Positions 14,334 through 43,906 of a DNA stretch of 56,040 nt are shown piece after piece. Made by a program: the position numbers and the translations under genes. The stretch covers positions 1 to 56,040 of IMG/VR virus record IMGVR_UViG_3300032269_000733. The stretch is one strand, 5' to 3'. Numbering within the stretch: position 1 is the stretch's first letter; each line of letters opens with the position of its first letter. The notes under the pieces are model-generated. The model made no database searches and had not been told where the DNA came from. It was given only the letters and a program-made list of their open reading frames with translations. The DNA is from a virus. Its lineage: Duplodnaviria; Caudoviricetes.

Positions 14334-17300
14334 ATGCCAATTCATGAAGTAGAAACCCCTGACGGAAGCATCATGAGAGTTGAGGCACCTGAAGGTGCTT
14401 CACAAGATGCTATTCTTGCTTTTGCTTCGCAAAATTATCAACCAAAAGAATTAAAAGAAAGTCCTGAATCAGGTGGTATTGCCGCTGCAAAAGCATCTGT
14501 ACGAGACATTATTGGTCAAGGTGCTCTTACTCTAGGCAGGGTTGGTTTAATGAACCCTGAAGAAGCACAGCTTCGATATGAAAAAGAAAAACAACGATCA
14601 GCAGAGATATTCAAACCCACGGAAGGAACTTTCTTCCAATCGCCACTAGCTAAGACTAGTGAATTACTTGGTGGTTCTTTGCCCTATATGGCGGCTCCTT
14701 TGGTCGGTGCTGCAGTGGCAAATCCTTTGGGCGCAGGTCTTATTGGCGCAGGCGCTGTATCCGCAGGACAGTTTGTCGGTTCAAACTTAGCACGTCAATT
14801 GGACGAAGGAAAAAAGGAAGGTAAAACTCTTGCTGATACTAGTCTGACATCCGCAGTAGCTGCATCCATCCCACAAGCGTTGCTTGATACCTACGCACTC
14901 AAAATGACTCCATTAATTCGTGGAGTCTTTGGTAAAGCAGGACAAGAGATTACCGAAAAAACCGCACAAGAAATTGCCAAGAAAGGTATTCTTGGAACCA
15001 TTACAGATGTAGGCTTAACCGCTAACCGAGAAGGTATTACTGAGGCAGGACAGCAAGTCTTGGAGCGTTTACAAGCTGGTTTAAACATTGCAGACGAAGA
15101 AGCTCGCAAAGAATATTTTGATAGTTATGTTGGTGGCGCTGTACTCGGTGGAGTCTTAGGCGCAGGTGGTCACTTTATAGAAAAGACCATGCAGAACAAG
15201 CCAGAGAATGAATATGATTCTTTGATGACTAGTCTGCGCACACATTTTGATACAGCATCTGACGTGCCTATGACTGATGTTGTTGGTAAAATTTCCGAAC
15301 TAACGGGCGAAAAAGACTTAAACAAAATACAAAACTTCCTTGGTGGCGCAGAACAGTTAGGGCATTTAGAAACAGTTCCAAACGAAGATAACACTTTATC
15401 CATCAAGTTTAAACAGCCTACACCAATTGAGCAGGCAGACGACTTACAGAAGAACGCCAATCCTGACATTTATAGACCTGAGGTGTTTGAAAGCCATGCC
15501 GAGTTATATAAAGCCATCGTTCCTAAGTTAAAGAAGTTTGGCTTAGAAAATGTCGGTGTTAAGATCATGGACAGTATTGAAAATGGTAGAGCTGATGGTT
15601 TATGGGCTAACAAGGTTATTCATTTAGCCATGGATTCACCCAATCCAATAGGTACTATGCGCCATGAGTCAGTTCATGCCTTAAGACAACTAGGTGGATT
15701 TAAACCAAATGAGTGGACAGTTTTAACCAATAAAGCTAAAGATGAGTGGGTAGATAAGTTCATTAAGAAGGCAGATTTGTATGACCAGTACAAAGACCAG
15801 TATGTTAAAGATAATGGTAATTTAACTGGCTTTGATGATTATATCCACGAAGAAGCGATTGCTGAAGCGTTTAAACACTTTGACCAAACCAAGCCACCAG
15901 CAGGACTAGTTGGCAACATCTATCAACGACTAAAACAATTTTTTGAAACGATCCGCAATGGATTTGAAGGCAATGGATTTAACACTGCCGATAGTATATT
16001 TAGGAGCCTAGACGAAGGTAAACGTGCTCCTGTACAATTAAAAAAAGGAGAAATAAATGAACAATCAAAATACAACCTTGCCCAATACGATGAAGAAGGA
16101 CGACCTGTACAAGCAACTCCAATCAATGGAGCCGAAGCAGGAGAATTTCCAAGACGAGGAGAGTTACTTGGAGGCGAGGGACGCATTCCGCAACCGAGCA
16201 GGGTTCTTGCTCCGACCCAAAGCCTAGATAATAATCCACCACCTGTTACCATACCAAGTCTTGGTCAGGTATCTTTTGGAGCACATCCTCAAGCAAGACA
16301 AGTAGCTCAAGAATATATGGCTAATAAGCCTTATTTTCCTGCTACATCTTATGTTAAGGTAGATCCTGAGCAAGCAAAACGTGTTGCGGATGCTTACGAA
16401 AACATGAAGGATGATCCAACTAATCCTCAGGTTAAAGCGTCATACGATGCAATGATTAAAGAAACTTTAGACCAATGGCAAGCCATTAAAAAAACAGGTT
16501 TAAAGGTAGAGTTTATGCAAGAAGGAATGGATGACCCTTATGCCGAGTCTCCACGACTTGCCATTCTTGATGCAGTTAACAACAATCACCTATGGGTATT
16601 CCCAACTGATTTTGGGTACGGTGAGGGCAATGTAATGGATGAGAAAAACAATCCATTATTAGCCTATACTGATGAAATTATTAGTGGCAAACGAGCAAGA
16701 GCAAATGATATCTTTCGTATTGTTCATGATTACTTTGGACACATTAAAGATGGTGTAGGATTTAGAGCAGATGGTGAAGAGAATGCGTGGCGTTCTCATG
16801 TTCAAATGTATTCACCACTAGCAAGAAATGCAATGACTATTGAGACTCGTGGACAAAATTCATGGGTTAATTTTGGACCGTATGCCGAATTTAATAAAAC
16901 CGCTAGTGCGGTGGATACTAAATACGCACCACAAAAAATTGGTTTGCTTCCTGAAGAATTTGTGTATAGTGGCTCACCTTTTGAAACAGACCACAACATA
17001 GGAGAAGAAGATGCAAAAAAATATAGCTTCAAAAACAAAGAATTACGACCCACGGAAAATGCCGTTCGACCTAGCGGTGGAGGCGGTGAAGGAATCTCTC
17101 TCAACCCAAGGCAAGCAAATGCGCAAACCTATGTCGGGCACCACTACAGCAAGGGTGAAAGGCAATATCTAGACGGTAGTAAGTATGGATCTCTAGATGG
17201 TATTGCAGGACAAGAGCAAAGACGTTTACAGTATTCCAACGATCCACGGATTAAAAAACGTGTATATTTCTACATTCCTCATTCAGAACTTGATGGTAAA

Positions 17301-20300
17301 TATTTACCTCCTGAACAAGGTCTTGGGTCGTTTAAACACGTACAAACATTTAATAATATCTTAGGTCCTGGACCTGAGATGTCTCGGATTTATGAGCAGT
17401 CAGGTGCAACCTCCAATGATATGAATCCGTTTGAATCTGCGGTGGTTGATGCAGGCTATGATGGCTATGCTGCTCCTCGTATGGGTATGATGGTTATCCT
17501 TAACCATGACAACATTCCTGTAAGTTTTGGTAAATACGCTATTCGTGCACCATTACAAAATGCATTTGATTATGCAAGAGGTAAGGACTTTAAAACCAAT
17601 CGAGATTTAAAAGTTGACTTGCAAAAAATAGCTTTACAAAAAAACCAACAAGCAAAAATAAACATTGAAAACTTTGATAATAAAACCATTGAGTATCTTT
17701 CTAACCTTGGGGTTGCAGACGCATTGCATGCCATAAAAACAAATGAAAATGCAGTTGGGTGGTATGACGTTACCGTTGCCAAAGCATTAAACATTATTTC
17801 TTTATTGCATCCTGAAATTAAAACAGACCCTGACGCTAAATTTGCATTTACATGGGCATTGGCTGTTACCTCCAACGGCATAAAAGTTGATAAGAACTTT
17901 GAATTGGCAGAACAAGCTTACAATTATTATAAAAATAATGGCGTAATGCCTACAGATATTCAAGCAGGTGAATCACAAAAAGGAATCAATAACGGATTAA
18001 AAACATTTAATGAGATGGTTGCTAAGTATGGTATAGACAATACTAGAAAGTTTATGGCAACTGAATTTACTCCAAAAGAAATTGAAAATTTAACAGGGTT
18101 AAAAATTCTTGGAGAAAACGTAGGCACAAAACTTTTGGGTGCGTCTATTATTGGACCTAAAATTGGCAATGGATTCTATAGTAACCTAAACGGCATCTTT
18201 GATAAGCTGACGATGGACAGATGGCTCATGAGAACATGGGGTCGTTGGACAGGCACATTGATTGAAAATAATGTTGCACAAACTAAAGCAAGCAAAACTC
18301 TTGTTGACACTTTGTTAAGACAGATGGTAAACGACAAAGAAACAAAAAAGAATTTTGAACAAGTTTTAAAAAAATCAATTACTAAAACAGAAGTTAAAAC
18401 TGAAGAAGGTAGAGCATTGTTAGCAAAAAACATTGCTAAATCTACTGTAAAATCCGCAAACAGGGATGTTTTTAACCGAACCACATTAGGTGAAAATTTA
18501 AGAAAAGCATCAAACAATTTAGCAAAGTACCTTGACGGTCAAAAAGAAGCGCCAAAAACAGGTACAGAAAGAAATCAAATACGTGCCGTGTTTAATTCGA
18601 TGCTAAAAAAATTACAGGCTCGTGGTTACAATGATTTAACTATGGCTGATTTACAAGCCTTGTTATGGTATCCTGAAAGACGTTTGTACGATGTTGCAAA
18701 AGAAAGCGATACAAATGAAGGTTATGATGACAGTGAAGCACCTGATTATGCAAACGCAGCGGCTAAATTAGTTAAAGAAAATGGAGTTTCAGAAACACAA
18801 ATTAACCAAGTTATTAAACAAACGGAGAATCAATATGTTAACAGAGCAAGAGGAGTTCAACCAAATGCGGGAAATAACACCCCTCAAACTAGCACCCAAG
18901 GAAAGACTAGAGGCTTTACTGAAGAAGAAAGAGCAAAATTCTCAGAACAATATGCTCCTCCAAAACCAGAAAAAGCTCCAAGGGTAAAAAAAGAAAAGTA
19001 TTCATTACGAGCCCCCAACACTCCTGCGTTTAGAGCGTGGTTTAAGGGCAGTAAAGTTGTAGATGAAGATGGTAAACCATTGATCGTTTATCATGGAACA
19101 GCAGGGGATGCATTTGATGTATTTGATAAAAATAAAATTAGATTAATGGATTATGATGCGCCATTTAATGGATTTTGGTTCTCATCGGATAAGGCTACAT
19201 CTCCAGCAATGCGTGATGCAAAAAATGTAATCTCTGTTTATCTGAGTATAAAAAATCCCGCACCAAGCAATGTATGGAAAAAAGTATCTAGAGAGGTTTA
19301 TTCTGACCAAAACATACGCAAAGAATCGAGGTCTGATAATGATGAGGTAAGACATAGATTGCAAGACATGGGATATGATGGAATTAAGTTTTCTGGAAAG
19401 CCAGATATAAACGCTAATGAATTAAATGAAAAGGGCTACACATCATTTAAAGATGTTTCAGGAAAATCTTACACTTTAGCTAAAAATAAAGAAGACGGTG
19501 GATTAGATTTATACGATGGCAAAACCGATGGTTTTCCGAATCCGCAAACAGAAGAATACATTACTGGATATTCAAATCTTCAAGAATATTTAAATACTGA
19601 AAAACATGAAACTTGGGTTACCTTTGAGCCTAACCAAATTAAATCAGTATTTAATCAAGCACCAACCGAATCCAACGACATTCGTTATTCTTTAAAAGCT
19701 CCTAACACTCCTGCGTTTAAACGTTGGTTTGGTAACAGCAAAATAGTTAATACTGATGGCACACCAAAAGTGATGTACCACGGTACTGCACAAGATATAT
19801 TTGAGTTTAGACCTAAGCAAGCCAATGCTATATTTGTAACTGACAATCCAAGATTTGCAGAAGGTTTTTCAGATTTAAGTTCTAATTACATGGTAAATGA
19901 AATTGAAAAAAATTTACCTAAAGATAAAAAGGAAAAACTATATAGACAAGCAAAACAAATTGCAAAAAAAGAAGAAACTGATTTTATTGATGAATATAAC
20001 AATCTTATAAAAAATGAATTGCCATCAGCGCAAAACATAATTCCTGTATTTGTTCGTTCTGAAAAACCGTTTGATTATGAAAATAAACAAGATAAAGAAA
20101 AATTATGGAATTCATTAAATGATGATGAAGCATCAGCAATTTATCGTTTGTATTTAGATAAAGATGAATATTCAAAAGATTTGGTTTCTGATTTAAATAG
20201 TGGAAGTTGGAAATTAATTGAATCACATCCAATGCAACATGCAATTAAAAAAGCAGGATTTGATGGATTTTATATTAGGGAAGGTGGTAACAAAAACTTA

Positions 20301-23300
20301 GCAGTATATGAACCATCACAGTTAAAATCTGCCACAGGTAATCAAGGTACATTTGACATCACTAGCCCTGATATCCGTTATGCACTACGTGCATCTAAAA
20401 CACCTGCGTTCCAAAAATGGTTTGGTGACAGCGTTGTTATTAATGAACAAGGTGAACCTCAGATTGTTTACACGGGCACATCAAAAGACAAAGACTTTAC
20501 ATCATTTAATGTTCCTAAAAATGGCACATGGTTTACCACCAATCCTGAAATGGCATCATCTTATGCCTCTCAAAATGATAGTCAAGGATATAAAAGAGAT
20601 GAAAGTGAAGGTGCAAAACCTTGGGATATTGTTGCAACCAATACTGCATCAAGAGTTATACCTGCGTTCTTAAAAATTGAAAATCCATTCAAAATGACAG
20701 ATGAGCTTTTTAAAGAACATCTTGGCGGGAGTGGCAGTTACAAAAGAAAACAAGCAAATTATTTTGAAACGTTAAAATATCAAGGATATGATGGTATTGA
20801 TATGGGTGATGGAATTTGGGTTGTATTAAAAAATCCAAACCAAATTAAAACTGCGTTTAACATGAATCCTACTGAAAAGAAGGACATGCGTTATTCCATA
20901 TATCCTGGACCTCGTTTAACTAAAATAGAAGCACCAAAGAGTACAGTCAATGTAGTTAAAGACACTGCCTCAGAGGTATGGGATAACATTCATGACAATA
21001 ATTATCTCACTCAAAATCGTATAGCATGGGTAGACCGAGTGTCAGGATTAACTCAGGCATTACAAAAACTGCCACAGTTTGACATGAACGGTAAACTACG
21101 TGCCGATCTATTAATACGTGCCAAGTTTCAAACAATTAATTTTATTAAAAACGCCATTCAATCAGGCATTCCAATCCTTAATGCTGACGGAACTTTGGGT
21201 GTTGAACGCAGCGAAAACAACTTAGCTCGCAGCTTAATCCTTGCTGATGAACTAGACTCAAAGTTTAAACAATTTGGATTCACAGGTAGAAGCGGTGTAG
21301 CAGAGGTTGCTCGTATCCTGCGTGGTGAAGAGATTATGAAGGAAGATGCGGTTGAGCGTGCCAAGGGCGATGCTTTGGTAAAACAAGCAAACGCTCATTT
21401 AAAAATGGCATCAGATCTTAAAAATTTACATAAGTTTGAACTTGAGTACGCTAAAAAATTAACCAAAGAAGCTAAAGTCTTATACAACGCAGGCAAACTA
21501 AGAGAAGGTAATCTTAAGGCAAGCGAAGCAAGACGCATCTATGAGACTAATTTTTACAGGGAAATACTCAAAGAAACAAAAGAAGCAAGAAAATTAATGA
21601 ATGAGGGTAAACCCTTACAAAAAGTTTTTAGAGAATTTCAAGTTACAGATGCCAAAATTAAATGGGCAAACAATATACTTAAGCAAATTCCTGAAACAGA
21701 AAATGTCCTTAGCATATGGCGGAACGTCAATCGTGGCTTAATTGATTTATGGGTTGAAACAGGCATATTAGATGAGCAAACAGCATCAAAATACAAAGCA
21801 CGTGATCGGTATGTTCCGCTGTTTAAATCAAGAGAAGACTTGGATGCAGAAGGTTTATACAACTCCACAGGCACAGGAACAAAGTCTACTGCCAAGATAA
21901 AAACATTAAAAGGTGCAATGATAGACCGCAACATTTGGGAGAACATGGATAAGCATTTTGCCAAAATGGTTGCCCAAGCGTATGAAAATCAAACACGCAG
22001 AGTCGGTGTTGATCAACTAAAATATTTTGGCTTGGCTACTATAACAAAGGACAGAACAAAAGCTAATTTATTCTTCAAAGAAAATGGCAAAGAAGTCATG
22101 GCAATAGTGGAAAACCCTAATGACCTTGCCGCTTTCCAAGCAATGACATATGAGATTAGCCCTATCATGAAAATGTTTGTGCCGATGACAAAAGTGCTTA
22201 GAACAGGCGCTTTGCTCAATCCTATGTATTGGATTAAGCAATTGATTCGTGACCCAATACACGCTTCTTTGGTGGCTAATAGCGGTATTGTTACACCGTT
22301 TCATTCCATGGTGGAGTTTGCTAGAGTGATTGCTAAGAATTCTGAGGAAGCTAAAATTCTTGCAGATCGAGGTGTCATTGGTGCGGTAGATAACACGTTG
22401 ACAATCAATGAGTTTTTAAAACAAGTTGGCAAGGAAAAGACAAATCCCCATGCACTTGCAGGAGCGTTGCATAAAATCATGGAAATTCACGAGGCATCCG
22501 ATGCGGCGACTCGTGTAGCCATTTACAAGAAGGCATTTGCAGAAGGCATGAAAAAGTTTGGTGACAAACAAAAAGCCACAGACTATGCAGTGTTTAAAGC
22601 ACGTGAGTCGATTAACTTCTCAGTACATGGTAACTCCCCAATATTGCAACAGCTTCGAGCAACCATTCCGTTCTTCTCAGCAGCTATTACATCTTTGGAT
22701 ACGGTTTACCGAGCTGCTACAGGTTACGGTTTAAACGCTGATGAAAAAGCACAAGCCAGAAGAATCTTTGCTTCTCGTGCAGCAATGATGGTAATGTTAT
22801 CCACTGTTTATGCAATGATGTATCAAGATGATGATCAGTATAAAAAATTACCTGATTATGTTAAAGACGACAATTGGTTAATCCCTACTCCTGACGGCAA
22901 AACATTTATTAAGATTCCAACACCATTTGAGGTTGGCTTCTTATTTAAAACCATTCCTGAGGGTGCAGTCAGATACATGGCAGGCACAAGCACAGGCAAA
23001 GAATTAATGGCATCGTATTACGGTGGCTTGCTTAAAAATTTACCTGCAAATGGCATACCTATTCCACAGGCAGTAAAACCTATTTTAGAAACAATTACCA
23101 ATCATTCTTTCTTTACAGGCAATCCAATTGAAGGCATGAGCGATCAGGGTTTACCTGTATCCATGCGTGGTCAAAGAGCATCAGAATTTTCTAAGATGCT
23201 TAGTCGTTTGGGATTGGATGGCATTGGTTTATCCCCTGCCAAGATTGACAATTTGTTCCAAGGATACTTTGCTGAATTAGGTACCTTATCTACAGGTATG

Positions 23301-23729
23301 GCAAGTAGTTTGGTCAATTTAGCAGAAGGCAGAGAACCTCCCGCATCGAATATTCAAAATCTACCATTTATGAAATCATTCCTGACAGATCCAAATGTAA
23401 GCAAAGCTGTGTCTGATTTTTATAGCCTTCAAGCAAATGCTAAACAAATGGCAGATGCCGTCAACAGATTCAAGGGCGAGGGTAACATTGAAGGCATTAA
23501 GGATATTCTTAATGATGAAGAGAAAAAGAAAGCATATGCATCTGCTGCGCCACTGCGTAAGATTGGTGAAGAAATGACAAAGATACGCAAAGCTATTAAT
23601 TTCTACAAGCAAACTCAAGATATAGATCCCGAAGAACGCAGAAGAAAAATCAATGAATTAACGCAGATATACAACAAGATTGCAGAAAGTGGTTACACCG
23701 TTGCTGATGCTATTGGGGTGGTTCGTTAA
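14334..23729 (+). CDS. Giant polyvalent ejection protein: HExxH metallopeptidase, cargo modules incl. ADP-ribosyltransferase-like repeats, LPD38-like C-terminus
   Basis: 3131 aa; RHESVH...EEAIAEAF; three TPAF..WF..S..V...G.P...Y[HT]GT...G[YF]DG repeats; LPDYVKDDNWLIP...IKIPTPFEVG near C-terminus. Confidence 0.85.
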   Translation: MPIHEVETPDGSIMRVEAPEGASQDAILAFASQNYQPKELKESPESGGIAAAKASVRDIIGQGALTLGRVGLMNPEEAQLRYEKEKQRSAEIFKPTEGTFFQSPLAKTSELLGGSLPYMAAPLVGAAVANPLGAGLIGAGAVSAGQFVGSNLARQLDEGKKEGKTLADTSLTSAVAASIPQALLDTYALKMTPLIRGVFGKAGQEITEKTAQEIAKKGILGTITDVGLTANREGITEAGQQVLERLQAGLNIADEEARKEYFDSYVGGAVLGGVLGAGGHFIEKTMQNKPENEYDSLMTSLRTHFDTASDVPMTDVVGKISELTGEKDLNKIQNFLGGAEQLGHLETVPNEDNTLSIKFKQPTPIEQADDLQKNANPDIYRPEVFESHAELYKAIVPKLKKFGLENVGVKIMDSIENGRADGLWANKVIHLAMDSPNPIGTMRHESVHALRQLGGFKPNEWTVLTNKAKDEWVDKFIKKADLYDQYKDQYVKDNGNLTGFDDYIHEEAIAEAFKHFDQTKPPAGLVGNIYQRLKQFFETIRNGFEGNGFNTADSIFRSLDEGKRAPVQLKKGEINEQSKYNLAQYDEEGRPVQATPINGAEAGEFPRRGELLGGEGRIPQPSRVLAPTQSLDNNPPPVTIPSLGQVSFGAHPQARQVAQEYMANKPYFPATSYVKVDPEQAKRVADAYENMKDDPTNPQVKASYDAMIKETLDQWQAIKKTGLKVEFMQEGMDDPYAESPRLAILDAVNNNHLWVFPTDFGYGEGNVMDEKNNPLLAYTDEIISGKRARANDIFRIVHDYFGHIKDGVGFRADGEENAWRSHVQMYSPLARNAMTIETRGQNSWVNFGPYAEFNKTASAVDTKYAPQKIGLLPEEFVYSGSPFETDHNIGEEDAKKYSFKNKELRPTENAVRPSGGGGEGISLNPRQANAQTYVGHHYSKGERQYLDGSKYGSLDGIAGQEQRRLQYSNDPRIKKRVYFYIPHSELDGKYLPPEQGLGSFKHVQTFNNILGPGPEMSRIYEQSGATSNDMNPFESAVVDAGYDGYAAPRMGMMVILNHDNIPVSFGKYAIRAPLQNAFDYARGKDFKTNRDLKVDLQKIALQKNQQAKINIENFDNKTIEYLSNLGVADALHAIKTNENAVGWYDVTVAKALNIISLLHPEIKTDPDAKFAFTWALAVTSNGIKVDKNFELAEQAYNYYKNNGVMPTDIQAGESQKGINNGLKTFNEMVAKYGIDNTRKFMATEFTPKEIENLTGLKILGENVGTKLLGASIIGPKIGNGFYSNLNGIFDKLTMDRWLMRTWGRWTGTLIENNVAQTKASKTLVDTLLRQMVNDKETKKNFEQVLKKSITKTEVKTEEGRALLAKNIAKSTVKSANRDVFNRTTLGENLRKASNNLAKYLDGQKEAPKTGTERNQIRAVFNSMLKKLQARGYNDLTMADLQALLWYPERRLYDVAKESDTNEGYDDSEAPDYANAAAKLVKENGVSETQINQVIKQTENQYVNRARGVQPNAGNNTPQTSTQGKTRGFTEEERAKFSEQYAPPKPEKAPRVKKEKYSLRAPNTPAFRAWFKGSKVVDEDGKPLIVYHGTAGDAFDVFDKNKIRLMDYDAPFNGFWFSSDKATSPAMRDAKNVISVYLSIKNPAPSNVWKKVSREVYSDQNIRKESRSDNDEVRHRLQDMGYDGIKFSGKPDINANELNEKGYTSFKDVSGKSYTLAKNKEDGGLDLYDGKTDGFPNPQTEEYITGYSNLQEYLNTEKHETWVTFEPNQIKSVFNQAPTESNDIRYSLKAPNTPAFKRWFGNSKIVNTDGTPKVMYHGTAQDIFEFRPKQANAIFVTDNPRFAEGFSDLSSNYMVNEIEKNLPKDKKEKLYRQAKQIAKKEETDFIDEYNNLIKNELPSAQNIIPVFVRSEKPFDYENKQDKEKLWNSLNDDEASAIYRLYLDKDEYSKDLVSDLNSGSWKLIESHPMQHAIKKAGFDGFYIREGGNKNLAVYEPSQLKSATGNQGTFDITSPDIRYALRASKTPAFQKWFGDSVVINEQGEPQIVYTGTSKDKDFTSFNVPKNGTWFTTNPEMASSYASQNDSQGYKRDESEGAKPWDIVATNTASRVIPAFLKIENPFKMTDELFKEHLGGSGSYKRKQANYFETLKYQGYDGIDMGDGIWVVLKNPNQIKTAFNMNPTEKKDMRYSIYPGPRLTKIEAPKSTVNVVKDTASEVWDNIHDNNYLTQNRIAWVDRVSGLTQALQKLPQFDMNGKLRADLLIRAKFQTINFIKNAIQSGIPILNADGTLGVERSENNLARSLILADELDSKFKQFGFTGRSGVAEVARILRGEEIMKEDAVERAKGDALVKQANAHLKMASDLKNLHKFELEYAKKLTKEAKVLYNAGKLREGNLKASEARRIYETNFYREILKETKEARKLMNEGKPLQKVFREFQVTDAKIKWANNILKQIPETENVLSIWRNVNRGLIDLWVETGILDEQTASKYKARDRYVPLFKSREDLDAEGLYNSTGTGTKSTAKIKTLKGAMIDRNIWENMDKHFAKMVAQAYENQTRRVGVDQLKYFGLATITKDRTKANLFFKENGKEVMAIVENPNDLAAFQAMTYEISPIMKMFVPMTKVLRTGALLNPMYWIKQLIRDPIHASLVANSGIVTPFHSMVEFARVIAKNSEEAKILADRGVIGAVDNTLTINEFLKQVGKEKTNPHALAGALHKIMEIHEASDAATRVAIYKKAFAEGMKKFGDKQKATDYAVFKARESINFSVHGNSPILQQLRATIPFFSAAITSLDTVYRAATGYGLNADEKAQARRIFASRAAMMVMLSTVYAMMYQDDDQYKKLPDYVKDDNWLIPTPDGKTFIKIPTPFEVGFLFKTIPEGAVRYMAGTSTGKELMASYYGGLLKNLPANGIPIPQAVKPILETITNHSFFTGNPIEGMSDQGLPVSMRGQRASEFSKMLSRLGLDGIGLSPAKIDNLFQGYFAELGTLSTGMASSLVNLAEGREPPASNIQNLPFMKSFLTDPNVSKAVSDFYSLQANAKQMADAVNRFKGEGNIEGIKDILNDEEKKKAYASAAPLRKIGEEMTKIRKAINFYKQTQDIDPEERRRKINELTQIYNKIAESGYTVADAIGVVR

Positions 23730-30221: not shown

Positions 30222-30250
30222 ATAATATTACTATCAAAATTAAAATGCAA
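30222..30250 (-). promoter_or_regulatory. Sigma70-type promoter for the leftward recombination operon
   Basis: Minus strand TTGCAT-N17-TATTAT upstream of AGGAGG and start at 30194. Confidence 0.55.
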
Positions 30251-30610
30251 GCAATATTTTTAAAAATATTTGGTGAGCCTGCCAGCAAAGCAAACAGTCG
30301 CAGATTAGTTGCACGTCACGGCAAGCCAATGTTTATCAAGTCATCCAAGGCGTTATCATACGCCACCATGTTTAAACAACAATGCGTTGTTTCGCCATCC
30401 CAAAAAATATCAGAAGATGTTGTGGTAACGATTCGCATTTGGTACGCATCACGCAGACCTGATTTAGATGAAAGCTTAATCTTGGATTTGCTACAGGGTA
30501 TTGCTTATGACAACGACAGGCAAGTCAAGGAAAAACATATTTATTGGATGGGTGTTGATAAAACAAATCCACGGTGTGAGATAACAGTGGAAAAAATAAA
30601 GGACTCCTGA
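30245..30610 (+). CDS. rusA: RusA-like Holliday junction resolvase
   Basis: P.SK.NSRR, RRPDLD...LD.LQ...Y.NDRQV. Confidence 0.82.
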   Translation: MQAIFLKIFGEPASKANSRRLVARHGKPMFIKSSKALSYATMFKQQCVVSPSQKISEDVVVTIRIWYASRRPDLDESLILDLLQGIAYDNDRQVKEKHIYWMGVDKTNPRCEITVEKIKDS

Positions 30611-30962: not shown

Positions 30963-30970
30963 GGAATCTA

Positions 30971-31194
30971 TTCTTAATTGTCGGTGAAAAACGGTGGGAT
31001 TAAGAAGTATTGCTGATACCATGGGAAGTGCTTAGAAATCAGAAGAGGTGGCGAAGACAGAACCTCAGCACGAAACGTCTGTCGGGTCATACCGAAACCG
31101 TAGGGCAACGTATGTGAAGGCAGACATAGGATAAGGCTAGGTCTGCCCTCTCCGAGGGCAAGGTACTAGGTAGTACATAACACTAGGTAGTACA
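30971..31194 (+). ncRNA. Candidate structured leader RNA or structured DNA element upstream of HNH and primase-helicase
   Basis: Six short complementary pairs incl. one crossing pair; no long ORF. Confidence 0.45.
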
Positions 31195-31449: not shown

Positions 31450-33132
31450 ATGAATGTAGGACAACTAATTGAGTCGGTATATATTGCCGATTCTGCAAGG
31501 GCAATCTGCCCATTCTGCACACCATCACGCAGAAAGCAACATGTAGAAGATTTCGTAATTACACGTACCGATGATGGTTATCGGTATTACTGCCATCATT
31601 GCCATGAACGTGGCTTTTACAGTTCTGAACCGAGGGGATATAACGTGATACCAATGAAGAAAGAGCAACCTGTAGTTTCCATGACAAGCCTACAACCTCA
31701 ACATTTAGATTTTTTAATATCACGTGGTATATCAGAGGCAACTGCCAAGCAAGCCAAATTATTTTCAGCTCAAAAATATTTTAGAAAACTAGACAAACGT
31801 ACTGATGCGATTGCCTTTCCTTATTTTAAAAATGGCAAATACATTTCATCCAAATATCGCAGTATTGAGGGCAAGGACTTTTTGCAAGATGATGGTGGAG
31901 CACACGACTTTTTTGGGATTGATGATGTGGATGTTAGCCATCCCATCGTCATTGTTGAGGGTGAAATGGATGCACTGAGCCTGATGGAATGTGGCATTCC
32001 CAACGTGCTTTCTGTACCTAATGGCGCACCCATGGCAGTCAAAGATGGCAAGGTGGATGCGAGTGAAGACAAGAAGTTTGCATTTGTATGGAATGCTCAT
32101 GAAGTATTAAGCAAGGTGCCCTATATCATTATTGCAACAGATAACGACTCAGCGGGTCAAGCACTTGCCGAGGAACTAGCAAGACGAATTGGCAAGGACA
32201 GATGCCGTATCGCCAAATCAGAGTACAAGGATTTAAACGAAGCATTACTTGCCGAAGGTGCAGACAAGGTTAAGGAAATTATTACAAACGCAGATCCATA
32301 CCCCGTTTCAGGATTGTCTTCACCTGCAAAATTTCTAGAGCGTTTAAACGACCTATGGAATAAGGGAACTAACAAAGGTGTGTCTACGGGTTATACCAAT
32401 GTAGACACCATTTACACGGTAGCACAGTCTCAACTCACAGTGGTAACAGGTTATCCATCCTCAGGTAAGTCTAACTTTATTGATCAACTCATGGTCAACC
32501 TTGCACGTAGCCATGATTGGAAGTTTGCCGTATGTTCATTTGAGAATCAGCCTGAGATTCATATCTCAAGATTCATGGAGATATACAAGGAGAAACGATT
32601 CTTTGATGGCAAGAATCGAATGACCAAAGAGGAGAAAGAAGAAGCGTTTAAATGGGTGGAGAATCATTTCATCATGATGGATTCTGAAACAATTGAGCCC
32701 ACAAGTATTGATTCTGTACTAGAGCGAGCCAAGATAGCAGTAACTCGTATGGGTATTCGGGGTTTGGTAATCGATCCCTACAACTACATTGAGAATAAAT
32801 CAGGTGGCAGTGAGCATGAATTCATTTCAAACATGCTGACCAAGATTCAAGCATTCGCCAAGGCTTATGATGTTCACGTATGGTTCATCGCTCACCCAAG
32901 CAAGATAACACGCTCAGGCATGGACTTGCCTCGACCTGATGGTATGGCGATTAGTGGTTCAATGGCATGGTGGGCTAAGGCAGATAATGGAATTACGGTT
33001 CATCGAGCAGAGCATCATGTCGAGATTGCCGTATGGAAGTGTCGCTATCGTTGGATAGGAACTCAGGGAGAGACTAAACTTGAGTACGTCAAGAACACAG
33101 GAACTTACATGGAGATTGTGGATGACTTTTAA
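31450..33132 (+). CDS. DNA primase-helicase (T7 gp4 / Twinkle-like)
   Basis: CPFC...CHHC zinc domain, TOPRIM EGEMD and DND..G, KDLNE, Walker A GYPSSGKS, VIDPYN, AHP. Confidence 0.95.
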   Translation: MNVGQLIESVYIADSARAICPFCTPSRRKQHVEDFVITRTDDGYRYYCHHCHERGFYSSEPRGYNVIPMKKEQPVVSMTSLQPQHLDFLISRGISEATAKQAKLFSAQKYFRKLDKRTDAIAFPYFKNGKYISSKYRSIEGKDFLQDDGGAHDFFGIDDVDVSHPIVIVEGEMDALSLMECGIPNVLSVPNGAPMAVKDGKVDASEDKKFAFVWNAHEVLSKVPYIIIATDNDSAGQALAEELARRIGKDRCRIAKSEYKDLNEALLAEGADKVKEIITNADPYPVSGLSSPAKFLERLNDLWNKGTNKGVSTGYTNVDTIYTVAQSQLTVVTGYPSSGKSNFIDQLMVNLARSHDWKFAVCSFENQPEIHISRFMEIYKEKRFFDGKNRMTKEEKEEAFKWVENHFIMMDSETIEPTSIDSVLERAKIAVTRMGIRGLVIDPYNYIENKSGGSEHEFISNMLTKIQAFAKAYDVHVWFIAHPSKITRSGMDLPRPDGMAISGSMAWWAKADNGITVHRAEHHVEIAVWKCRYRWIGTQGETKLEYVKNTGTYMEIVDDF

Positions 33133-35407: not shown

Positions 35408-36208
35408 TTATTTAATTGCGTTTAACATCGTTGTAAATGATTGAGATGCCATCTCACTCAAGTCGTTAATAACTACTGCATGCTTGTAAGTCTTGCGCAC
35501 ACCATCTGCCTGTATGCCAACACCTATCAAGGTAATACCCAACTTCGTTGCAACCTCATCCAAGTACCTCATGTGGGTAACGTTAACACTACCTGAGTCC
35601 GTAAGAAAGAACAATACCTTGCGCTTCTCAGGGCGCTTGGCGAGGTCTTCGATGGATAAGAGCAAGCCCTGATAATCAGGGTTGCCACGAAATGCACAGT
35701 TCTCTATCGCACCAAGTTTCGGTATTGCTTTTTGCAATGTCTCTCCCCAATGTTTAAACGCATAGAAGCGAACATCTTCAGGTATGTATAAACTACCATC
35801 GGGTAACTCTTGCGTGTCCGACTCATGCTCTGAGTCAAAGCCAAAGACTCTGTATGAGACGTCTGCTTTGTCAAACACCTTGACCAATTGAATCACTGCC
35901 GATGCAGTCAACCTCATGCGAGCGCCCATTGAACCTGAGCAGTCAACAAGTATTGATACTGCCGACTTGTGTGCTTCCTTGTAGTCACGATGACTGAACA
36001 CTTGCGTACTGCCACAAGCCATGCGACTGAAAGCCTTACGGTCTAATTTGCCTGACTCTTCATAGTGCGACCACCCAACCAAGTCATTGGCACGTAGCAA
36101 ACGTAAGAGACTTGCACGTGTTGCACCAAAGCCTGAGGGTGTTGCATCGAACTTAGCCTTGAAACTATCTGTCGCTTCACTTCTATTGATTGTTAATTTT
36201 CTTTTCAT
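35408..36208 (-). CDS. vWA domain protein (CobT C-terminal-like)
   Basis: SGKLD, MIDAS ILVDCSGSM, FFLTD, GVGI; GGAG SD before ATG 36208. Confidence 0.88.
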   Translation of the reverse strand: MKRKLTINRSEATDSFKAKFDATPSGFGATRASLLRLLRANDLVGWSHYEESGKLDRKAFSRMACGSTQVFSHRDYKEAHKSAVSILVDCSGSMGARMRLTASAVIQLVKVFDKADVSYRVFGFDSEHESDTQELPDGSLYIPEDVRFYAFKHWGETLQKAIPKLGAIENCAFRGNPDYQGLLLSIEDLAKRPEKRKVLFFLTDSGSVNVTHMRYLDEVATKLGITLIGVGIQADGVRKTYKHAVVINDLSEMASQSFTTMLNAIK

Positions 36209-36218
36209 GATGACTCCA

Positions 36219-37139
36219 TTAAACAATATTAAATTCAAACAACTGCTCTGAGTTGAGAACAGGTCTATAACTTCTTTTATCAGCGCCACACTTCAAAGGC
36301 TTTGCTTCCTCATCAATGTAGTCGTTGATCTCAGGGTCACGAGGGTCTGTGCCATCGTCTTTCATCTTGCCCTTGTCTTCACCATCAGCACCACTAGGCT
36401 TACCATCGCCCTCGCTCTCGCTCTCGCCCTCGTCATCGCCTGATTCTTCACCACCCTTGCCACCATCCTTGCCCTCTTCCTCAGGCTCTTCAACACTTCC
36501 CTCTTCATCATCATCAAAGAGTCGCTTGTACAACTCAAGCGCAACCTCAGCGATGCGCATTGTGTTGAGTGCTTTGTGTGCTTCATCAAGCGCCCAACGA
36601 ATATGCTCCTCAAAGGGTGAACCTGTAATCAAATCAGGGATGTCGATTACATAACCGTTTAAACGTCTACCCTCAACGCATAGGATGAATGGTAGCGATT
36701 GCTTGGTCAACTCATCAGGAAAGCCACCCTTGACAAGCACGTTGTTGATAAGCGAATTAAACAGGTCAGCACTGTTGGGTGCATAGCCCGACTCAATTAC
36801 CTTACGCTCAATGCGTGGGTCTTCAAGAGCATTGATGAGTGTACCAACGTACTTGCCATGTTCACGAGCAGTGTCATGCCATGGTGCGTTGTTGGTGAAC
36901 CATACATGACCCAACTCATGCAAGATATAAGCAATCAAGTCATTGAATAATTTCTTGCTCACCTCTTTTGTTTCGTCAATCGCTGGCAACACGATGATTG
37001 CAGTACCTGAGTCATCGAATGTTACCTTGGCAGTCGCACCATGCCAAAGCATTTTGAATGTAGAGAACTTGCGACCACTTGATTGAAACACTTTCTGTGT
37101 GGCTGATTCGATGCCACGCTTTGCATTGATTGCTAACAT
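36219..37139 (-). CDS. CobT N-terminal-like zincin-motif protein with acidic tail
   Basis: LHELGH..FT, NALEDPRIE, long D/E/G-rich linker. Confidence 0.8.
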   Translation of the reverse strand: MLAINAKRGIESATQKVFQSSGRKFSTFKMLWHGATAKVTFDDSGTAIIVLPAIDETKEVSKKLFNDLIAYILHELGHVWFTNNAPWHDTAREHGKYVGTLINALEDPRIERKVIESGYAPNSADLFNSLINNVLVKGGFPDELTKQSLPFILCVEGRRLNGYVIDIPDLITGSPFEEHIRWALDEAHKALNTMRIAEVALELYKRLFDDDEEGSVEEPEEEGKDGGKGGEESGDDEGESESEGDGKPSGADGEDKGKMKDDGTDPRDPEINDYIDEEAKPLKCGADKRSYRPVLNSEQLFEFNIV

Positions 37140-39834: not shown

Positions 39835-40130
39835 TCTTCATTCAATACCTCCAATTGTTCTTTGATAAATTTTTCTTGTTGAGCGATTTGATCTTTTAAG
39901 CAATCAATTGCAACGCTTAAAGAAATTGAATTAACACGACCCTTGCGAGCCAATGCGTACATGTTGTCAGTCCAATAATAAGACAATGTGCCGTAAGCAA
40001 TAATTGCACCACTTTTACACTTGCCCTCGTCTACTAAACGACTGATGATTTCATCGTTTGCACGTTTTTTAGATACAAGTCCATCATTTTCAAACGCATG
40101 ATGCCAAGCAATTTTTTGATTTGATTTCAT
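39831..40130 (-). CDS. Hypothetical protein, first gene of early operon
   Basis: 99 aa, AGGAGG SD at 40135-40140. Confidence 0.65.
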   Translation of the reverse strand: MKSNQKIAWHHAFENDGLVSKKRANDEIISRLVDEGKCKSGAIIAYGTLSYYWTDNMYALARKGRVNSISLSVAIDCLKDQIAQQEKFIKEQLEVLNED

Positions 40131-40144
40131 ACATCCTCCTGTTA

Positions 40145-40610
40145 AGTGAAAATAAATCCTCTAGCACACTGCTTTTGCAATGCGCTATGAGACTTAATCT
40201 CGTTGAGTACTATCTACGTTGCCACTGTTTAAAAGGGTTACTACCTGATAAGTGCAACGCAATGAATGGTTTATGAAGTGAACCATTGGCACTGCTCGTC
40301 AGCGATTCATGACATCGCATCAGAAAGAACAACCAATCGCTTGGTAACTATCAGCACTCGTACAGGTTGTCAGCCCTGTAGTCTAGGTGGTCACGTCTCA
40401 CATCTCGTTCATCTCGCTGAGTTCCACTTCAACTTGACTACTAGCCTTTGACGCACAGTTTATAGCCCTGATATTGGCTTCACCTTTACTTTTACAACGC
40501 ACTGTGACCTGACGTTGACCTCTTTACTTTATTCACGCACTAGGCTCTGACGTGTCGGTGGTTACTCACCGTTTGTATTACTGATATTACTGTTTGTGTT
40601 GCATTGATAT
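40145..40610 (-). ncRNA. Candidate large structured non-coding RNA / leader (~470 nt)
   Basis: More than ten complementary segments, G-U pairs only on minus strand, GNRA loop, crossing helices, 38-nt internal repeat; no credible ORF. Confidence 0.65.
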
Positions 40611-40612
40611 CA

Positions 40613-40643
40613 ATTATAACCACATGTTTAAACAGTATTGCAA
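40613..40643 (-). promoter_or_regulatory. Putative early promoter
   Basis: Minus strand TTGCAA-N19-TATAAT (long spacer) with GTTTAAAC in the spacer and an A-tract upstream. Confidence 0.5.
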
Positions 40644-41994: not shown

Positions 41995-42168
41995 ATGAAA
42001 ACAAGTGAATTGACTGAAAAAGATTTTATGGTCATAAACTATTTAAATGAGTTGTCTAGGACTCACCGACTCAAGTTACTATTTATCTTTGAAGATGTAA
42101 AAAATACCATCATGCAGGATGAAGCTAAAAAGCAGATGGAACAATTGATTGACAGGGTAAAATTATGA
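41995..42168 (+). CDS. Hypothetical 57-aa protein (not in ORF track)
   Basis: MKTSELTEKDFMVINYLNELS...; ATGA overlap with next gene. Confidence 0.55.
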   Translation: MKTSELTEKDFMVINYLNELSRTHRLKLLFIFEDVKNTIMQDEAKKQMEQLIDRVKL

Positions 42169-42395
42169 CAGAGCGTCAGAAAATAGTCTTGGACTTTATT
42201 TCCATGTACATCAAGATGAAGGGTTTTCCACCGTCATATCAAGAGATTGCTATTGGTTTAAACCTGAGGAGTAAGAGTAATATCCATAGAATTATTCATT
42301 CCTTGCAAAAAAAAGGATTGCTTCACGTGAAACCTCACATGATTAGATCCCTGAAAGTAATTGATAAATCCGTGGATAAGATGGTTTCCTTGTGA
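42165..42395 (+). CDS. LexA-type winged-helix DNA-binding domain protein (no peptidase domain)
   Basis: TERQ..VLDFI...I...GFPPS..EIA..L...S.S.IH.....L.KKG. Confidence 0.88.
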   Translation: MTERQKIVLDFISMYIKMKGFPPSYQEIAIGLNLRSKSNIHRIIHSLQKKGLLHVKPHMIRSLKVIDKSVDKMVSL

Positions 42396-43906
42396 TAGAC
42401 AATTTACTCACGCAGGAGCAGTTAAAAGCCTACATGGATAGGCTAGTGTCTTTACCCAAAGACCATCCTGATGTGCCCAAGATAAGGATTGTCCTTGATG
42501 ATGACAATCAAAAAAGAGCAAGGCAGTACTTCCTGCCGTTTGTTAACAGGATGTGGCCCGGTTTTATCTTTGGTAAACACCATGCAATCATGGCAGAAGC
42601 GTTTGAACGGGTCGCCAAAGGCGAGCTCAAAAGACTAATTATCAACATGCCACCAAGGCATACTAAGTCCGAGTTTGCATCATTCATGTTTCCTGCATGG
42701 TTTCTAGGTAAATACCCTAATAAGAAGATTATTCAAACTGCCCACACATCGGAACTCGCAGTGAACTTTGGTAGGAAAGTCAGAAACTTAGTCAACACCT
42801 CGCAGTACCAAGACATCTTTGAAACCAAGCTATCAAGTGATTCCAAGGCGGCAGGACGATGGAATACTCACGCAGGAGGTGATTATTTTGCGATTGGTGT
42901 GGGTGGTGCAGTGACAGGTAAAGGTGCGGATGTATTGATTATTGATGATCCACATTCGGAACAAGAAGCCATGCAAGGTAATCCTGAGGTGTATGACAGA
43001 GTCTATGAATGGTTTTCTTCAGGTCCTCGTCAGCGTTTACAGCCAGGTGGTTCAATTATTGTAGTGATGACCCGTTGGTCAAAAAAGGATTTAACAGGAC
43101 AGATTATTGATAATTCCTTAAAAAGAGATGGCAGTAATGAGTGGGAAGTCATTCAATTGCCTGCTTTAATGCCCTCAGGAGTGCCACAATGGCCCCAATT
43201 TTGGAGTAAAGAAGAGCTTGATGCTATTAAAGCAGAACTCCCTGTTGGTAAATGGGAAGCACAATATCAACAGAATCCTACCTCAGAAGAAGGCGCTATT
43301 ATTAAACGGGAATATTGGAAGATATGGGAGCAAGAAAACCCACCGTTTTGTGATTATTTGATTCAGTCATGGGACACTGCCTTTGAAAAGAATAACAGGG
43401 CGGACTATTCTGTCTGTACAACATGGGGAATCTTCTACCATCCTGATGATAAAGGCATGGAACAAGCCAATATTATCTTGCTTGATTGTTTTAAGGGCAG
43501 ACTAGAATTCCCTGAACTCAAAGAAAAAGCATTTGAATTGTACAAAGAATGGAATCCTGATAGCTTGATTGTGGAAAAAAAGGCAGCAGGAGCTCCTCTT
43601 ATTTATGAAATGCGCAGAATGGGAATTCCTTTGCAGGAATATACACCAAGCAAAGGTAATGATAAAATAGCCCGTGTAAACGCTGTGTCTGATTTGTTTC
43701 GCTCAGGTTTTGTTTGGTGCCCTGACCTCAGGTGGGCAGAAGAGGTTGTAGAAGAATGTGCTAGTTTTCCAAATGGCGATCATGATGACATAGTAGACTC
43801 AACTAGTCAGGCTCTGTTAAGATTTAGGCAGGGTGGATTTATTCGTTTAAACAACGATGAACCTGATGAAGTTCAAGAGTTTAAACGCAAAGTGGCATAC
43901 TACTAA
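42392..43906 (+). CDS. terL: Terminase large subunit
   Basis: INMPPRHTKS, TGKGAD.LIIDDP, MTRW, QSWDTA, FPNGDHDD.VD. Confidence 0.96.
   Translation: MIDNLLTQEQLKAYMDRLVSLPKDHPDVPKIRIVLDDDNQKRARQYFLPFVNRMWPGFIFGKHHAIMAEAFERVAKGELKRLIINMPPRHTKSEFASFMFPAWFLGKYPNKKIIQTAHTSELAVNFGRKVRNLVNTSQYQDIFETKLSSDSKAAGRWNTHAGGDYFAIGVGGAVTGKGADVLIIDDPHSEQEAMQGNPEVYDRVYEWFSSGPRQRLQPGGSIIVVMTRWSKKDLTGQIIDNSLKRDGSNEWEVIQLPALMPSGVPQWPQFWSKEELDAIKAELPVGKWEAQYQQNPTSEEGAIIKREYWKIWEQENPPFCDYLIQSWDTAFEKNNRADYSVCTTWGIFYHPDDKGMEQANIILLDCFKGRLEFPELKEKAFELYKEWNPDSLIVEKKAAGAPLIYEMRRMGIPLQEYTPSKGNDKIARVNAVSDLFRSGFVWCPDLRWAEEVVEECASFPNGDHDDIVDSTSQALLRFRQGGFIRLNNDEPDEVQEFKRKVAYY

Follow-up and report, generated by a model that had tools for sequence, protein, structure and literature searches.

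GOLLD and ROOL are large, ornate, covariation-supported RNAs of phages and prophages that have no known function and tend to adjoin tRNA genes. The immunity RNAs of P4 (CI), P1/P7 (C4) and N15 (CB) are about 70-90 nucleotides (nt) long and pair with target sites in their own transcript; they are encoded in the leader of the early or antirepressor operon, terminators follow them, and they are processed from the transcript. The put element suppresses termination in cis by binding the zinc-binding domain of the RNA polymerase beta' subunit. HK022 put has been described as a promoter-proximal element of ~70 nt, independent of any phage protein, with a V-shaped pair of stem-loops and an RNA triplex (base-triple helix) (PMC9378689). 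Here we describe, in a 56,040-bp virus record of the Caudoviricetes (IMGVR_UViG_3300032269_000733, analysed whole and called the window; completeness ~90% by CheckV), a segment of the minus strand from ~40606 to ~40140 that, judging from its sequence and that of its relatives, is most likely the long 5′ leader of the early operon: conserved, non-coding and structured.

Results

Predicted leader between the early promoter and the first early gene

The original prediction had placed an undescribed, large and pseudoknotted phage RNA, possibly a leader for antitermination or processing, on the minus strand at the head of the early operon, and this proposal was supported as far as sequence analysis reaches. 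The minus-strand TATAAT noted at the upstream side of the RNA is present as described (40618-40613), and the leader region reads, in order, TTGCAA, GTTTAAAC, TATAAT, ~470 nt without a credible open reading frame (ORF), GGAGG and an ATG at 40130. The features that bound the leader are as follows.

40613..40643, minus strand: promoter-like region, with TTGCAA at 40643-40638, the palindrome GTTTAAAC at 40633-40626 and the -10 hexamer TATAAT at 40618-40613
40139-40135 (GGAGG) and 40130-40128 (ATG), minus strand: Shine-Dalgarno (SD) sequence and start of the first early ORF, of 99 amino acids (aa), as read from the sequence

The spacer from TTGCAA to TATAAT is 19 nt in the window, which explains why a promoter scanner missed this promoter. 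The site between the two hexamers is kept as GTTTAAA(C/T) in 24/24 full-length relatives, whose -10 elements are extended and of the TGnTAnnAT type; the palindrome may be an operator or activator site.

The absence of a credible coding frame was also borne out. The longest minus-strand ORFs within 40131-40612 have only 32, 34 and 40 aa and use GTG or TTG starts, and one 45-aa ORF begins upstream of the -10 hexamer. Across 41 relatives the longest stop-free stretch has a median of 45 codons, and no ORF is conserved. Folding energy likewise favoured the predicted strand: the minus-strand fold (-136.5 kcal/mol) had a z score of -2.31, with 1/100 shuffles equal or better, compared with -0.54 and 27/100 shuffles as good for the plus strand. 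The minimum-free-energy fold of the whole 482 nt, in which the 5′ end pairs with the middle, was set aside, as its long-range pairing lacks comparative support.

Compensatory changes support a minus-strand fold with tandem pseudoknots

Using the SprT-like protein as a handle, 43 related viral loci were collected. A single-sequence nhmmer search with the leader matched 20 of these at E < 1e-10, always on the same strand and upstream of SprT. In the alignments (MAFFT E-INS-i and L-INS-i), near-identical blocks alternate with stems changed on both sides. The leader proved to be conserved in many phage contigs and prophages, and the compensatory changes support the minus-strand fold, as the prediction would have it.

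A model of the 5′ half (40576-40383) was derived from the alignment and tested on 31 sequences, 29 of them distinct. Altogether 92.8% of the cells were paired, and 24 of the 42 pairs showed compensatory changes, in 131 cells; none of 500 column shuffles reached any of five measures. When the partners were moved by 1-3 columns as a slid control, at most 36.5% of the cells paired and at most 8 pairs covaried. Two figures are more telling, namely the slid control and how many distinct pair types occur, because the model was drawn from the same sequences and kinship inflates the shuffle counts; across all three tested halves (this one and the two 3′ halves described below) the slid controls stayed at or below 42% paired. 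The elements of the 5′ half and the core are these.

40556..40571, minus strand: hairpin P2, CGGUG-AGUAAC-CACCG, 100% paired, 4/5 pairs compensatory
40518..40554, minus strand: pseudoknot 1 (PK1), with stem S1 at 40554-51/40537-34, stem S2 at 40545-42/40521-18 plus the pair 40539/40523, and an A-rich linker
40480..40517, minus strand: pseudoknot 2 (PK2), with S1 at 40517-14/40498-95 and S2 at 40507-04/40483-80 (UCAC/GUGA)
40456..40479, minus strand: pseudoknot 3 (PK3), with S1 at 40479-76/40467-64 and S2 at 40470-68/40458-56
40393..40454, minus strand: core domain, in which helix P6 (40454-50/40397-93) encloses AAAGGCUAGUAG (40449-38), GAACGAGAU (40410-02), an AGUA/GAA internal loop and a variable apical hairpin

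In each H-type module a stem of 4-5 bp carries a loop of ~13 nt, the four central letters of which pair with a downstream strand; the linker is rich in A, for example AAUAAAGUAAAG. S2 of PK1 is 100% paired with 3/5 pairs compensatory, and its pair types are well mixed (CG:22/AU:7, GC:20/CG:7/UA:2 and UA:15/AU:14). In PK2, S1 is 100% paired with 3/4 pairs compensatory, and S2 occurs, when the alignment is read by eye, as UCAC/GUGA, ACAC/GUGU, UGCC/GGCA, UACC/GGUA, GCAC/GUGC and UGCA/UGCA; this helix is undercounted because MAFFT shifts the window-type rows by one column. S2 of PK3 shows CG:19 versus GC:7. A loop that both pairs downstream and covaries was found in S2 of PK1 and of PK3, and also in two helices of the relatives' 3′ half (AU:11 versus UA:9; GC:19 versus AU:4). 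By covariation, the fold of the leader comprises one hairpin, then three H-type pseudoknots in tandem, the almost invariant core hairpin of the S-turn type and further hairpins.

Pseudoknots thus exist as had been proposed, but they differ from the ones put forward, being local and H-type, at 40554-40518, 40517-40480 and 40479-40456. A similar division holds for the proposed stems: the local ones were largely right, all but two with compensatory changes, whereas five of the six long-range or crossing pairings were unsupported or clashed with supported helices. Among the local stems, 40556-60/40567-71 is P2 itself, and compensatory changes were seen in 4/6 pairs of 40375-80/40361-66, in 3/5 pairs of 40341-45/40332-36 (100% paired, closing a GCGA loop) and in 6/11 pairs of 40251-59/40217-26, which has a bulged G. 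The stems 40314-18/40302-06 and 40281-87/40265-71 were kept with one compensatory pair each, and 40177-87/40162-72 showed 2/10 in window-type rows and 6/10 in the homologous stem of 23 relatives. By comparison, 40290-95/40259-64 and the long-range 40353-59/40205-11 were 89% paired with no two-sided change, in few informative sequences. The three long-range stems of the 5′ half (40549-54/40392-97, 40542-46/40443-47 and 40501-06/40454-59) are complementary in the window, yet only 1/17 of their pairs is compensatory in 29 distinct relatives; every measure but one was reached by 500/500 shuffles and the remaining one by 497, and these stems compete with supported helices. The crossing pairs 40349-54/40245-50 and 40344-48/40237-41 were 68% paired, no better than shuffles. 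Stem 40436-41/40378-83 was left out of the count; the supported stem at 40375-80 shares positions with its 3′ arm.

An excess of G-U pairs on the minus strand, also part of the original prediction, was present but modest (115 G.U versus 49 A.C cells in the supported helices). The pairing pattern, this excess and the orientation together point to a minus-strand RNA made from the early promoter.

An almost invariant core of S-turn type

The core hairpin AAGGCUAGUAG...GAACGAGAU, with its AGUA/GAA loop, is almost invariant. Among 92 distinct sequences from all subgroups, the letters of AAGGC, AGUA and GAACGAG are invariant and the intervening U is nearly so. The helices inside the core are 94-98% paired, with 12/14 pairs compensatory. 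The enclosing P6 is paired in 58.5% of the core-wide set and 78.4% of the 5′-half set, and its register differs in one subgroup. AGUA opposite GAA with Watson-Crick flanks is the pattern of what we take to be an S-turn (bulged-G, loop E type) motif. The apical hairpin varies, several subgroups having a plain tetraloop hairpin in its place, which indicates that the conserved part is the internal loop. The near-invariant core (25 nt) is kept across phages with differing flanking genes, as would fit a contact with a conserved host machine.

A like arrangement, GCUAGUA-helix-GAAUACG, occurs in the 16S rRNA of the host family (locus L234, ~1575-1625, GCUAGUAAUCGCGG...CGCGGUGAAUACG), where the letters agree partly with those of the core; the likeness could be mimicry or merely a common motif type. 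Two further resemblances were rejected. A T-box Stem I-like reading (S-turn plus UGGRA apical loop) does not suit the plain tetraloops of several subgroups and found no T-box match, and a preQ1-I-like reading of the pseudoknot modules found no match in Rfam.

The 3′ half and a boxB/boxA-like arrangement

The 3′ half of the window type is common to only a few close relatives. Its seven local stems were 87.4% paired, with 19/49 pairs compensatory in 6 sequences; four of the five measures were reached by 0/500 shuffles and the fifth by 20/500, and the slid controls were at most 40% paired. The commoner 3′ half, represented by 23 distinct relatives, was 95.7% paired, with 19/45 pairs compensatory in 120 cells, and here 0/500 shuffles reached four measures and 83/500 the fifth. 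In these relatives two more pseudoknots of the same module type replace the middle hairpins of the window, indicating that the family is modular, with 3 to 5 pseudoknot modules. The hairpins of the window are listed below.

40361..40380, minus strand: P8, hairpin UACAGG/CCUGUA; 4/6 pairs compensatory (window type), 5/5 in relatives
40324..40345, minus strand: P9, hairpin 40345-41/40336-32 with a GCGA tetraloop, followed by GUUCUUU (40330-24); 100% paired, 3/5 compensatory
40302..40318, minus strand: P10, hairpin GCGAU-GUCAUGA-AUCGC; 88% paired, 1 compensatory pair
40265..40287, minus strand: P11, hairpin AAUGGUU/AACCAUU; 1 compensatory pair, few sequences
40215..40261, minus strand: P12, long stem with bulged G40223 and a conserved apical loop; 6/11 pairs compensatory

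A GCGA-tetraloop hairpin followed by GTTCTTT was found in 29/45 unique leaders, ~75-80 nt after GAACGAG, and in the rrn leader of one host-family genome a hairpin is followed by GGUUCAUUAAAAA. P9 and GUUCUUU may therefore be described as a boxB/boxA-like arrangement, with a partial match to the consensus.

The terminal hairpin and its recurrence between early cistrons

The leader ends in a strong hairpin.

40148..40201, minus strand: terminal interrupted hairpin of 22 bp, with the upper stem at 40187-77/40172-62 and UUUAUUUU (40156-49) in the 3′ arm

These last 54 nt fold with -28 kcal/mol (z = -7.3; 0/200 shuffles as good), and the homologous stem covaries in 23 relatives (6/10 pairs). The UUUAUUUU tract lies ~10 nt before the SD sequence and pairs with the A-rich 5′ arm; a simple terminator scanner did not list the window hairpin. 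In the family, the hairpins at the leader end stand 10-25 nt before the ribosome-binding site. The sequence suggests a terminator-like or processing-type hairpin. A strict hairpin with a T-tract was found in 14/34 unique prophage-type leaders (shuffled control 0/34), a count that is not strand-specific, since the hairpins are bidirectional; most of these terminators follow the core at a distance of 150-230 nt and immediately precede the first SD sequence and start.

The commonest subgroup has no U-tract there; behind its homologous stem stands a small GAUGC-loop-GCAUC hairpin. The long stem and the small hairpin are mutually exclusive, because the 3′ strand of the former overlaps the 5′ arm of the latter. 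This 3′ cassette, CAUCUCA-stem-UGAGGAUGC...GCAUC-GGAGG-ATG, recurs before further early genes, in 11 distinct extra copies at 10 loci; the window holds a single copy. The extra copies include the following, given by locus.

L027: 1661-1750
L007: 4409-4491 and 4727-4804
L220: 1112-1040 and 748-677
L092: 3478-3564
L032: 4579-4654

In addition, two type II hammerhead ribozymes lie downstream of the homologous leader in locus L108 (4914-4973 and 5220-5279, plus strand; 39.8 and 37.4 bits against a gathering score of 37), where they occupy the exact gaps between consecutive early ORFs. Their placement suggests self-cleavage of the polycistronic early mRNA. Given cassettes and hammerheads between cistrons, the early transcripts seem to be cut there, and the last hairpin of the leader is a candidate cut site or terminator.

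Distribution and genomic setting

An exact pattern from the most conserved block, AAGGCTAGTAG-N8-38-GAACGAGA, was searched in three sets of contigs: viral ones gave 67 matching stretches, those of genomes 19 and those of metagenomes 104, of which 80 were listed. In 13 of the 19 genome contigs, of Comamonadaceae type and taken as prophages, a profile search confirmed the match: they come from Acidovorax, Comamonas, Delftia, Curvibacter, Pseudorhodoferax, Paracidovorax and metagenome-assembled genomes of Comamonadaceae/Burkholderiaceae, and one is labelled Pantoea. The other six (Gemella, Prevotella, an archaeon, planctomycetes) were chance-like and were not confirmed by the profile. The core was found by profile search in 168 fetched loci, which reduce to 115 unique instances. 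With covariance model R1 of the core, only the source genome scored among 151 genomes of one prophage host's family, a first-look filter having limited scoring to 31 candidates per genome. On these searches the RNA is rare in sequenced bacteria and frequent among the fetched metagenome and viral contigs.

In the window, the leader fills the divergent gap between two gene blocks. The plus strand carries the late and structural genes, from 41002 onward; among them are those for the terminase small subunit, a LexA-type DNA-binding protein and the portal, together with a 504-aa ORF (42392-43906) read as a putative large terminase. Early genes run on the minus strand from 40130, beginning with three small ORFs, a SprT-like gene (phrog_6361), a CobS/MoxR-type AAA+ ATPase and CobT-like von Willebrand factor A (vWA) proteins; Erf, exonuclease and methyltransferase genes follow farther along.

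The leader had been described as lying upstream of a SprT/MoxR/vWA module. This holds in the window, but the leader is not tied to the module: within the bounds set by locus length, which apply to all these neighbour-gene counts, a SprT-like gene lies downstream in 45 of the 115 unique instances and a CobS-like gene in 26/115, while a divergent homologue of the window's terS lies upstream in 62/115. Homologues of the window's three small first ORFs stand beside none of the 115; the 99-aa first ORF also found no relatives in viral contigs. No SprT-like gene was seen in the two Comamonadaceae prophage loci whose ORFs were read (L116 and L056). There a CI-type S24 repressor gene immediately precedes the RNA and shares its orientation, many small ORFs come after it, and the promoter before it is a consensus one overlapped by inverted repeats. 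The arrangement is that of a lambdoid early-left operon, with the RNA in the place of PL-nutL or putL. In the examined relatives the leader lies in sense, immediately after a conserved promoter and immediately before the first early gene. What it is tied to is this promoter and not the SprT/MoxR/vWA genes.

Several observations concern the window's other genes. The LexA-type protein (76 aa, 42165-42395, plus strand), encoded just before the 504-aa ORF, has only the DNA-binding domain (E 3.5e-16) and no S24 peptidase part. The CobT-like gene (35408-37139, minus strand) consists of two overlapping ORFs, 36219-37139 and 35408-36289, which match the N-terminal (31-292) and C-terminal (480-721) parts of the single PHROG phrog_1576; a split gene, a frameshift and a sequencing error are all possible explanations. 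The structural block ends with a 3131-aa ORF (14334-23729, plus strand) that matches solely PHROGs of unknown function.

The RNA matches no catalogued family

For the minus strand of 40131-40612, no Rfam 15 family gave a match with an E value of 10 or less, GOLLD, ROOL, C4 antisense RNA, riboswitches, T-box and tmRNA included, leaving the predicted novelty intact, and the only window match at the gathering score was Betaproteobacteria-1 (RF02932). This match, at 30970-31087 on the plus strand, is full-length and scores 81.9 bits (gathering score 49.4); its neighbours in this plus-strand island are a RusA-like gene (30245-30610) on one side and a primase/helicase (31450-33132) on the other. On 15 related loci, Rfam 15 returned only two hammerheads and one tRNA, none of them in the leader. 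No tRNA or tmRNA was found in the window. Against GenBank phages, blastn gave no match with queries of 500-600 nt, and core queries of 57-60 nt gave only a chance match of 23 nt (E = 5). Full-text literature searches found no description of this RNA, supplementary motif lists and subscription journals being outside their reach. On these grounds the RNA is rated as a new, previously uncatalogued family of large structured RNAs.

Discussion

A proposed cis-acting leader and its rivals

We tentatively favour, at somewhat less than an even chance, a cis-acting early-operon leader that alters transcription elongation or termination, stands in the position of putL or nutL and is later clipped off. 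The nascent RNA would fold behind the host RNA polymerase, and the invariant core, possibly together with the hairpin and boxA-like element that would recruit Nus factors, would make the elongation complex resistant to termination. The polymerase could then traverse the leader's own terminator-like hairpin and later signals, so that the early genes are expressed, and the long 3′ hairpin would serve as a processing site that parts the structured RNA from the mRNA. The role would be that of putL or nutL in lambdoid phages, performed by an unrelated and much larger RNA. Four observations fit this role: the place next to the promoter, an end that resembles a terminator, terminators inside the operon of one prophage, and the invariant core with its hairpin/boxA-like element. 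The prophage is L116, which has three strong same-strand terminators inside the operon downstream of the leader (4677-93, 6338-57 and 7554-68) and a further one before the promoter, giving 17 terminator-like sites versus 8.0 +/- 2.7 in shuffles. Evasion of Rho through base composition was rejected as an explanation, the leader (C 0.197, G 0.238) differing little from the operon.

Several points weigh against a cis-acting role. Binding of polymerase or Nus factors by the leader is purely inferred. A leader of 350-470 nt with 3-5 pseudoknots goes far beyond the needs of known cis antiterminators (put, ~70 nt). The sequencing runs that hold the stretch are 8 of DNA and 0 of RNA. The reverse-complement control of the prophage-type terminator count scores 19/34, and a U-tract after the last hairpin is absent in 20/34 prophage-type leaders and in the commonest subgroup (L024-type). 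Terminator-like sites inside the early operon are not enriched in the window's own subgroup (L021, 6 versus 7.3 +/- 3.1; L042, 6 versus 5.2 +/- 2.4) or in prophage L056 (7 versus 6.2 +/- 2.5), and the window itself has 12 versus 7.1 +/- 2.1, most of those on the minus strand being weak and within ORFs. The boxA-like element matches at ~6 of 7 letters, and GUUCUUU was not noticed in the prophage-type flanks inspected, where no count was made. Taken together, the counter-arguments from size, from the terminators of the window's own subgroup and from the lack of RNA runs weigh almost as much as the support.

The strongest rival, possible but doubtful, is a discrete and stable trans-acting RNA, transcribed in large amounts from the first promoter and released by termination or cleavage at the 3′ hairpin, with the early genes expressed only by read-through; its rRNA-like S-turn core would bind or titrate a conserved component of the host, for instance a nuclease, a defence factor or a protein that is ribosomal or binds RNA. 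The size and architecture, with 3-5 pseudoknots and an invariant core, are closer to those of large functional RNAs than to those of leaders, and a 16S rRNA segment with an S-turn of the same type is similar to the core. The 3′ boundary is in every case marked by a strong hairpin, terminator-like in the window and in the 14 prophage-type leaders, but long and of the processing type in other subgroups, where it is found again between cistrons, the L108 hammerheads taking equivalent places. The first downstream genes, moreover, are not conserved. Against this reading, every examined case has the RNA in one place, in sense, after the early promoter and before the first early gene, whereas an independent RNA gene would be expected in other contexts too. 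Only 10-25 nt separate the boundary from the ribosome-binding site, where a second promoter would not fit, the target or partner protein is only hypothetical, and the runs holding the stretch are, as said, all of DNA.

It is improbable that the leader is a 5′ untranslated region whose main tasks are to stabilise the early mRNA and to set how far the first gene is translated, its 5′ domain blocking 5′-end-dependent decay and its 3′ cassette gating the ribosome-binding site through alternative pairings. The cassette of long stem, GAUGC-loop-GCAUC hairpin and GGAGG does precede several early genes in relatives, and the 5′ arm of hairpin H1 has two potential partners, the 3′ arm of H1 and the loop of H3, where weak covariation (2/6 pairs; 2/500 shuffles reach the observed cells) hints at a switch. 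The window, however, has no H3 hairpin, stabilising leaders are usually short hairpins, and the 25-nt core, invariant across very different phages, and the 3-5 pseudoknots would be left unexplained.

A ligand-sensing attenuator, in which the tandem H-type pseudoknots would be aptamers for a host metabolite that choose between termination at the 3′ hairpin and read-through, is less probable still. The modules share the topology of small pseudoknot aptamers (4-5 bp stem, 13-nt loop, A-rich third loop, 4-bp second stem), and the terminator-like hairpin comes after them. Against this, riboswitch families gave no match at E values as high as 10, the letters that pair in S2, and would line a binding pocket, vary freely, the number of modules ranges from 3 to 5, and the terminator lies ~200-300 nt from most modules with no evident competing pairing.

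That the segment is no RNA at all, and serves as a DNA-level element (a packaging site by terS, an origin, operators) or encodes small ORFs, has next to no likelihood: the frequent divergent terS homologue and the conserved GTTTAAAC palindrome would suit it, but compensatory changes keep intramolecular pairing, pseudoknots included, G.U cells exceed A.C cells, the prophage-type copies lie in the immunity region away from terS, and no ORF is conserved.

Significance

If the reading as a cis-acting leader is right, the RNA represents a new variant of RNA-mediated control of an early operon. RNA-only control of elongation is known in detail from one small phage element, put, and GOLLD and ROOL are still without an assigned function. 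More speculatively, and with a good deal of doubt, the leader may stand for a new class of large multi-pseudoknot phage RNAs that, without a phage protein, capture a conserved host machine through an rRNA-like S-turn core; the outcome would be either processive antitermination by RNA polymerase, which is the function of put achieved by an unrelated architecture ~5 times larger, or an abundant early decoy for a ribosome-binding or RNA-binding host factor.

The fixed place at the start of the early operon makes the function directly testable, by reporter assay and in vitro transcription. The almost invariant 25-nt core suits mutagenesis and pull-downs, and the family also occurs in cultivable Comamonadaceae lysogens. 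In addition, tandem pseudoknot modules joined to an S-turn core are of interest for RNA structural biology, and the long hairpin cassettes or hammerhead ribozymes that related early operons place between cistrons bear on how phages shape polycistronic early mRNA.

Comparison with known systems

Like GOLLD and ROOL, the present RNA is large, ornate, covariation-supported and borne by phages and prophages. It differs from them in having no Rfam match, in its fixed position at the head of the early operon and in a window without tRNA genes. With the immunity RNAs of P4, P1/P7 and N15 it shares the leader position, but it is far larger and has no match to the Rfam C4 family. The long stem (~15-20 bp) directly before the ribosome-binding site, which recurs before several early genes in relatives, resembles the intercistronic RNase III sites of T7-type early operons; in contrast, the window has one copy, with a terminator-like U-tract, and cleavage here is putative.

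The likeness to the lambda nut sites and to boxB-boxA of rrn leaders lies in the GNRA-type hairpin directly before GUUCUUU in those 29 leaders, in the same order as in the host-family rrn leader, and in a prophage position that matches PL-nutL. Unlike at those sites, the boxA consensus is matched only partly, the element makes up only a small fraction of a conserved RNA that is much larger, and no N-like protein was identified. Finally, compared by description and not by sequence, the RNA resembles putL and putR of HK022 in lying directly downstream of an early phage or prophage promoter, in sense with the early operon and upstream of terminators, and the A-rich third loops of its pseudoknots may be of the kind that forms triplexes. 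It departs from put in its length of 350-470 nt, its 3-5 pseudoknots and its S-turn core.

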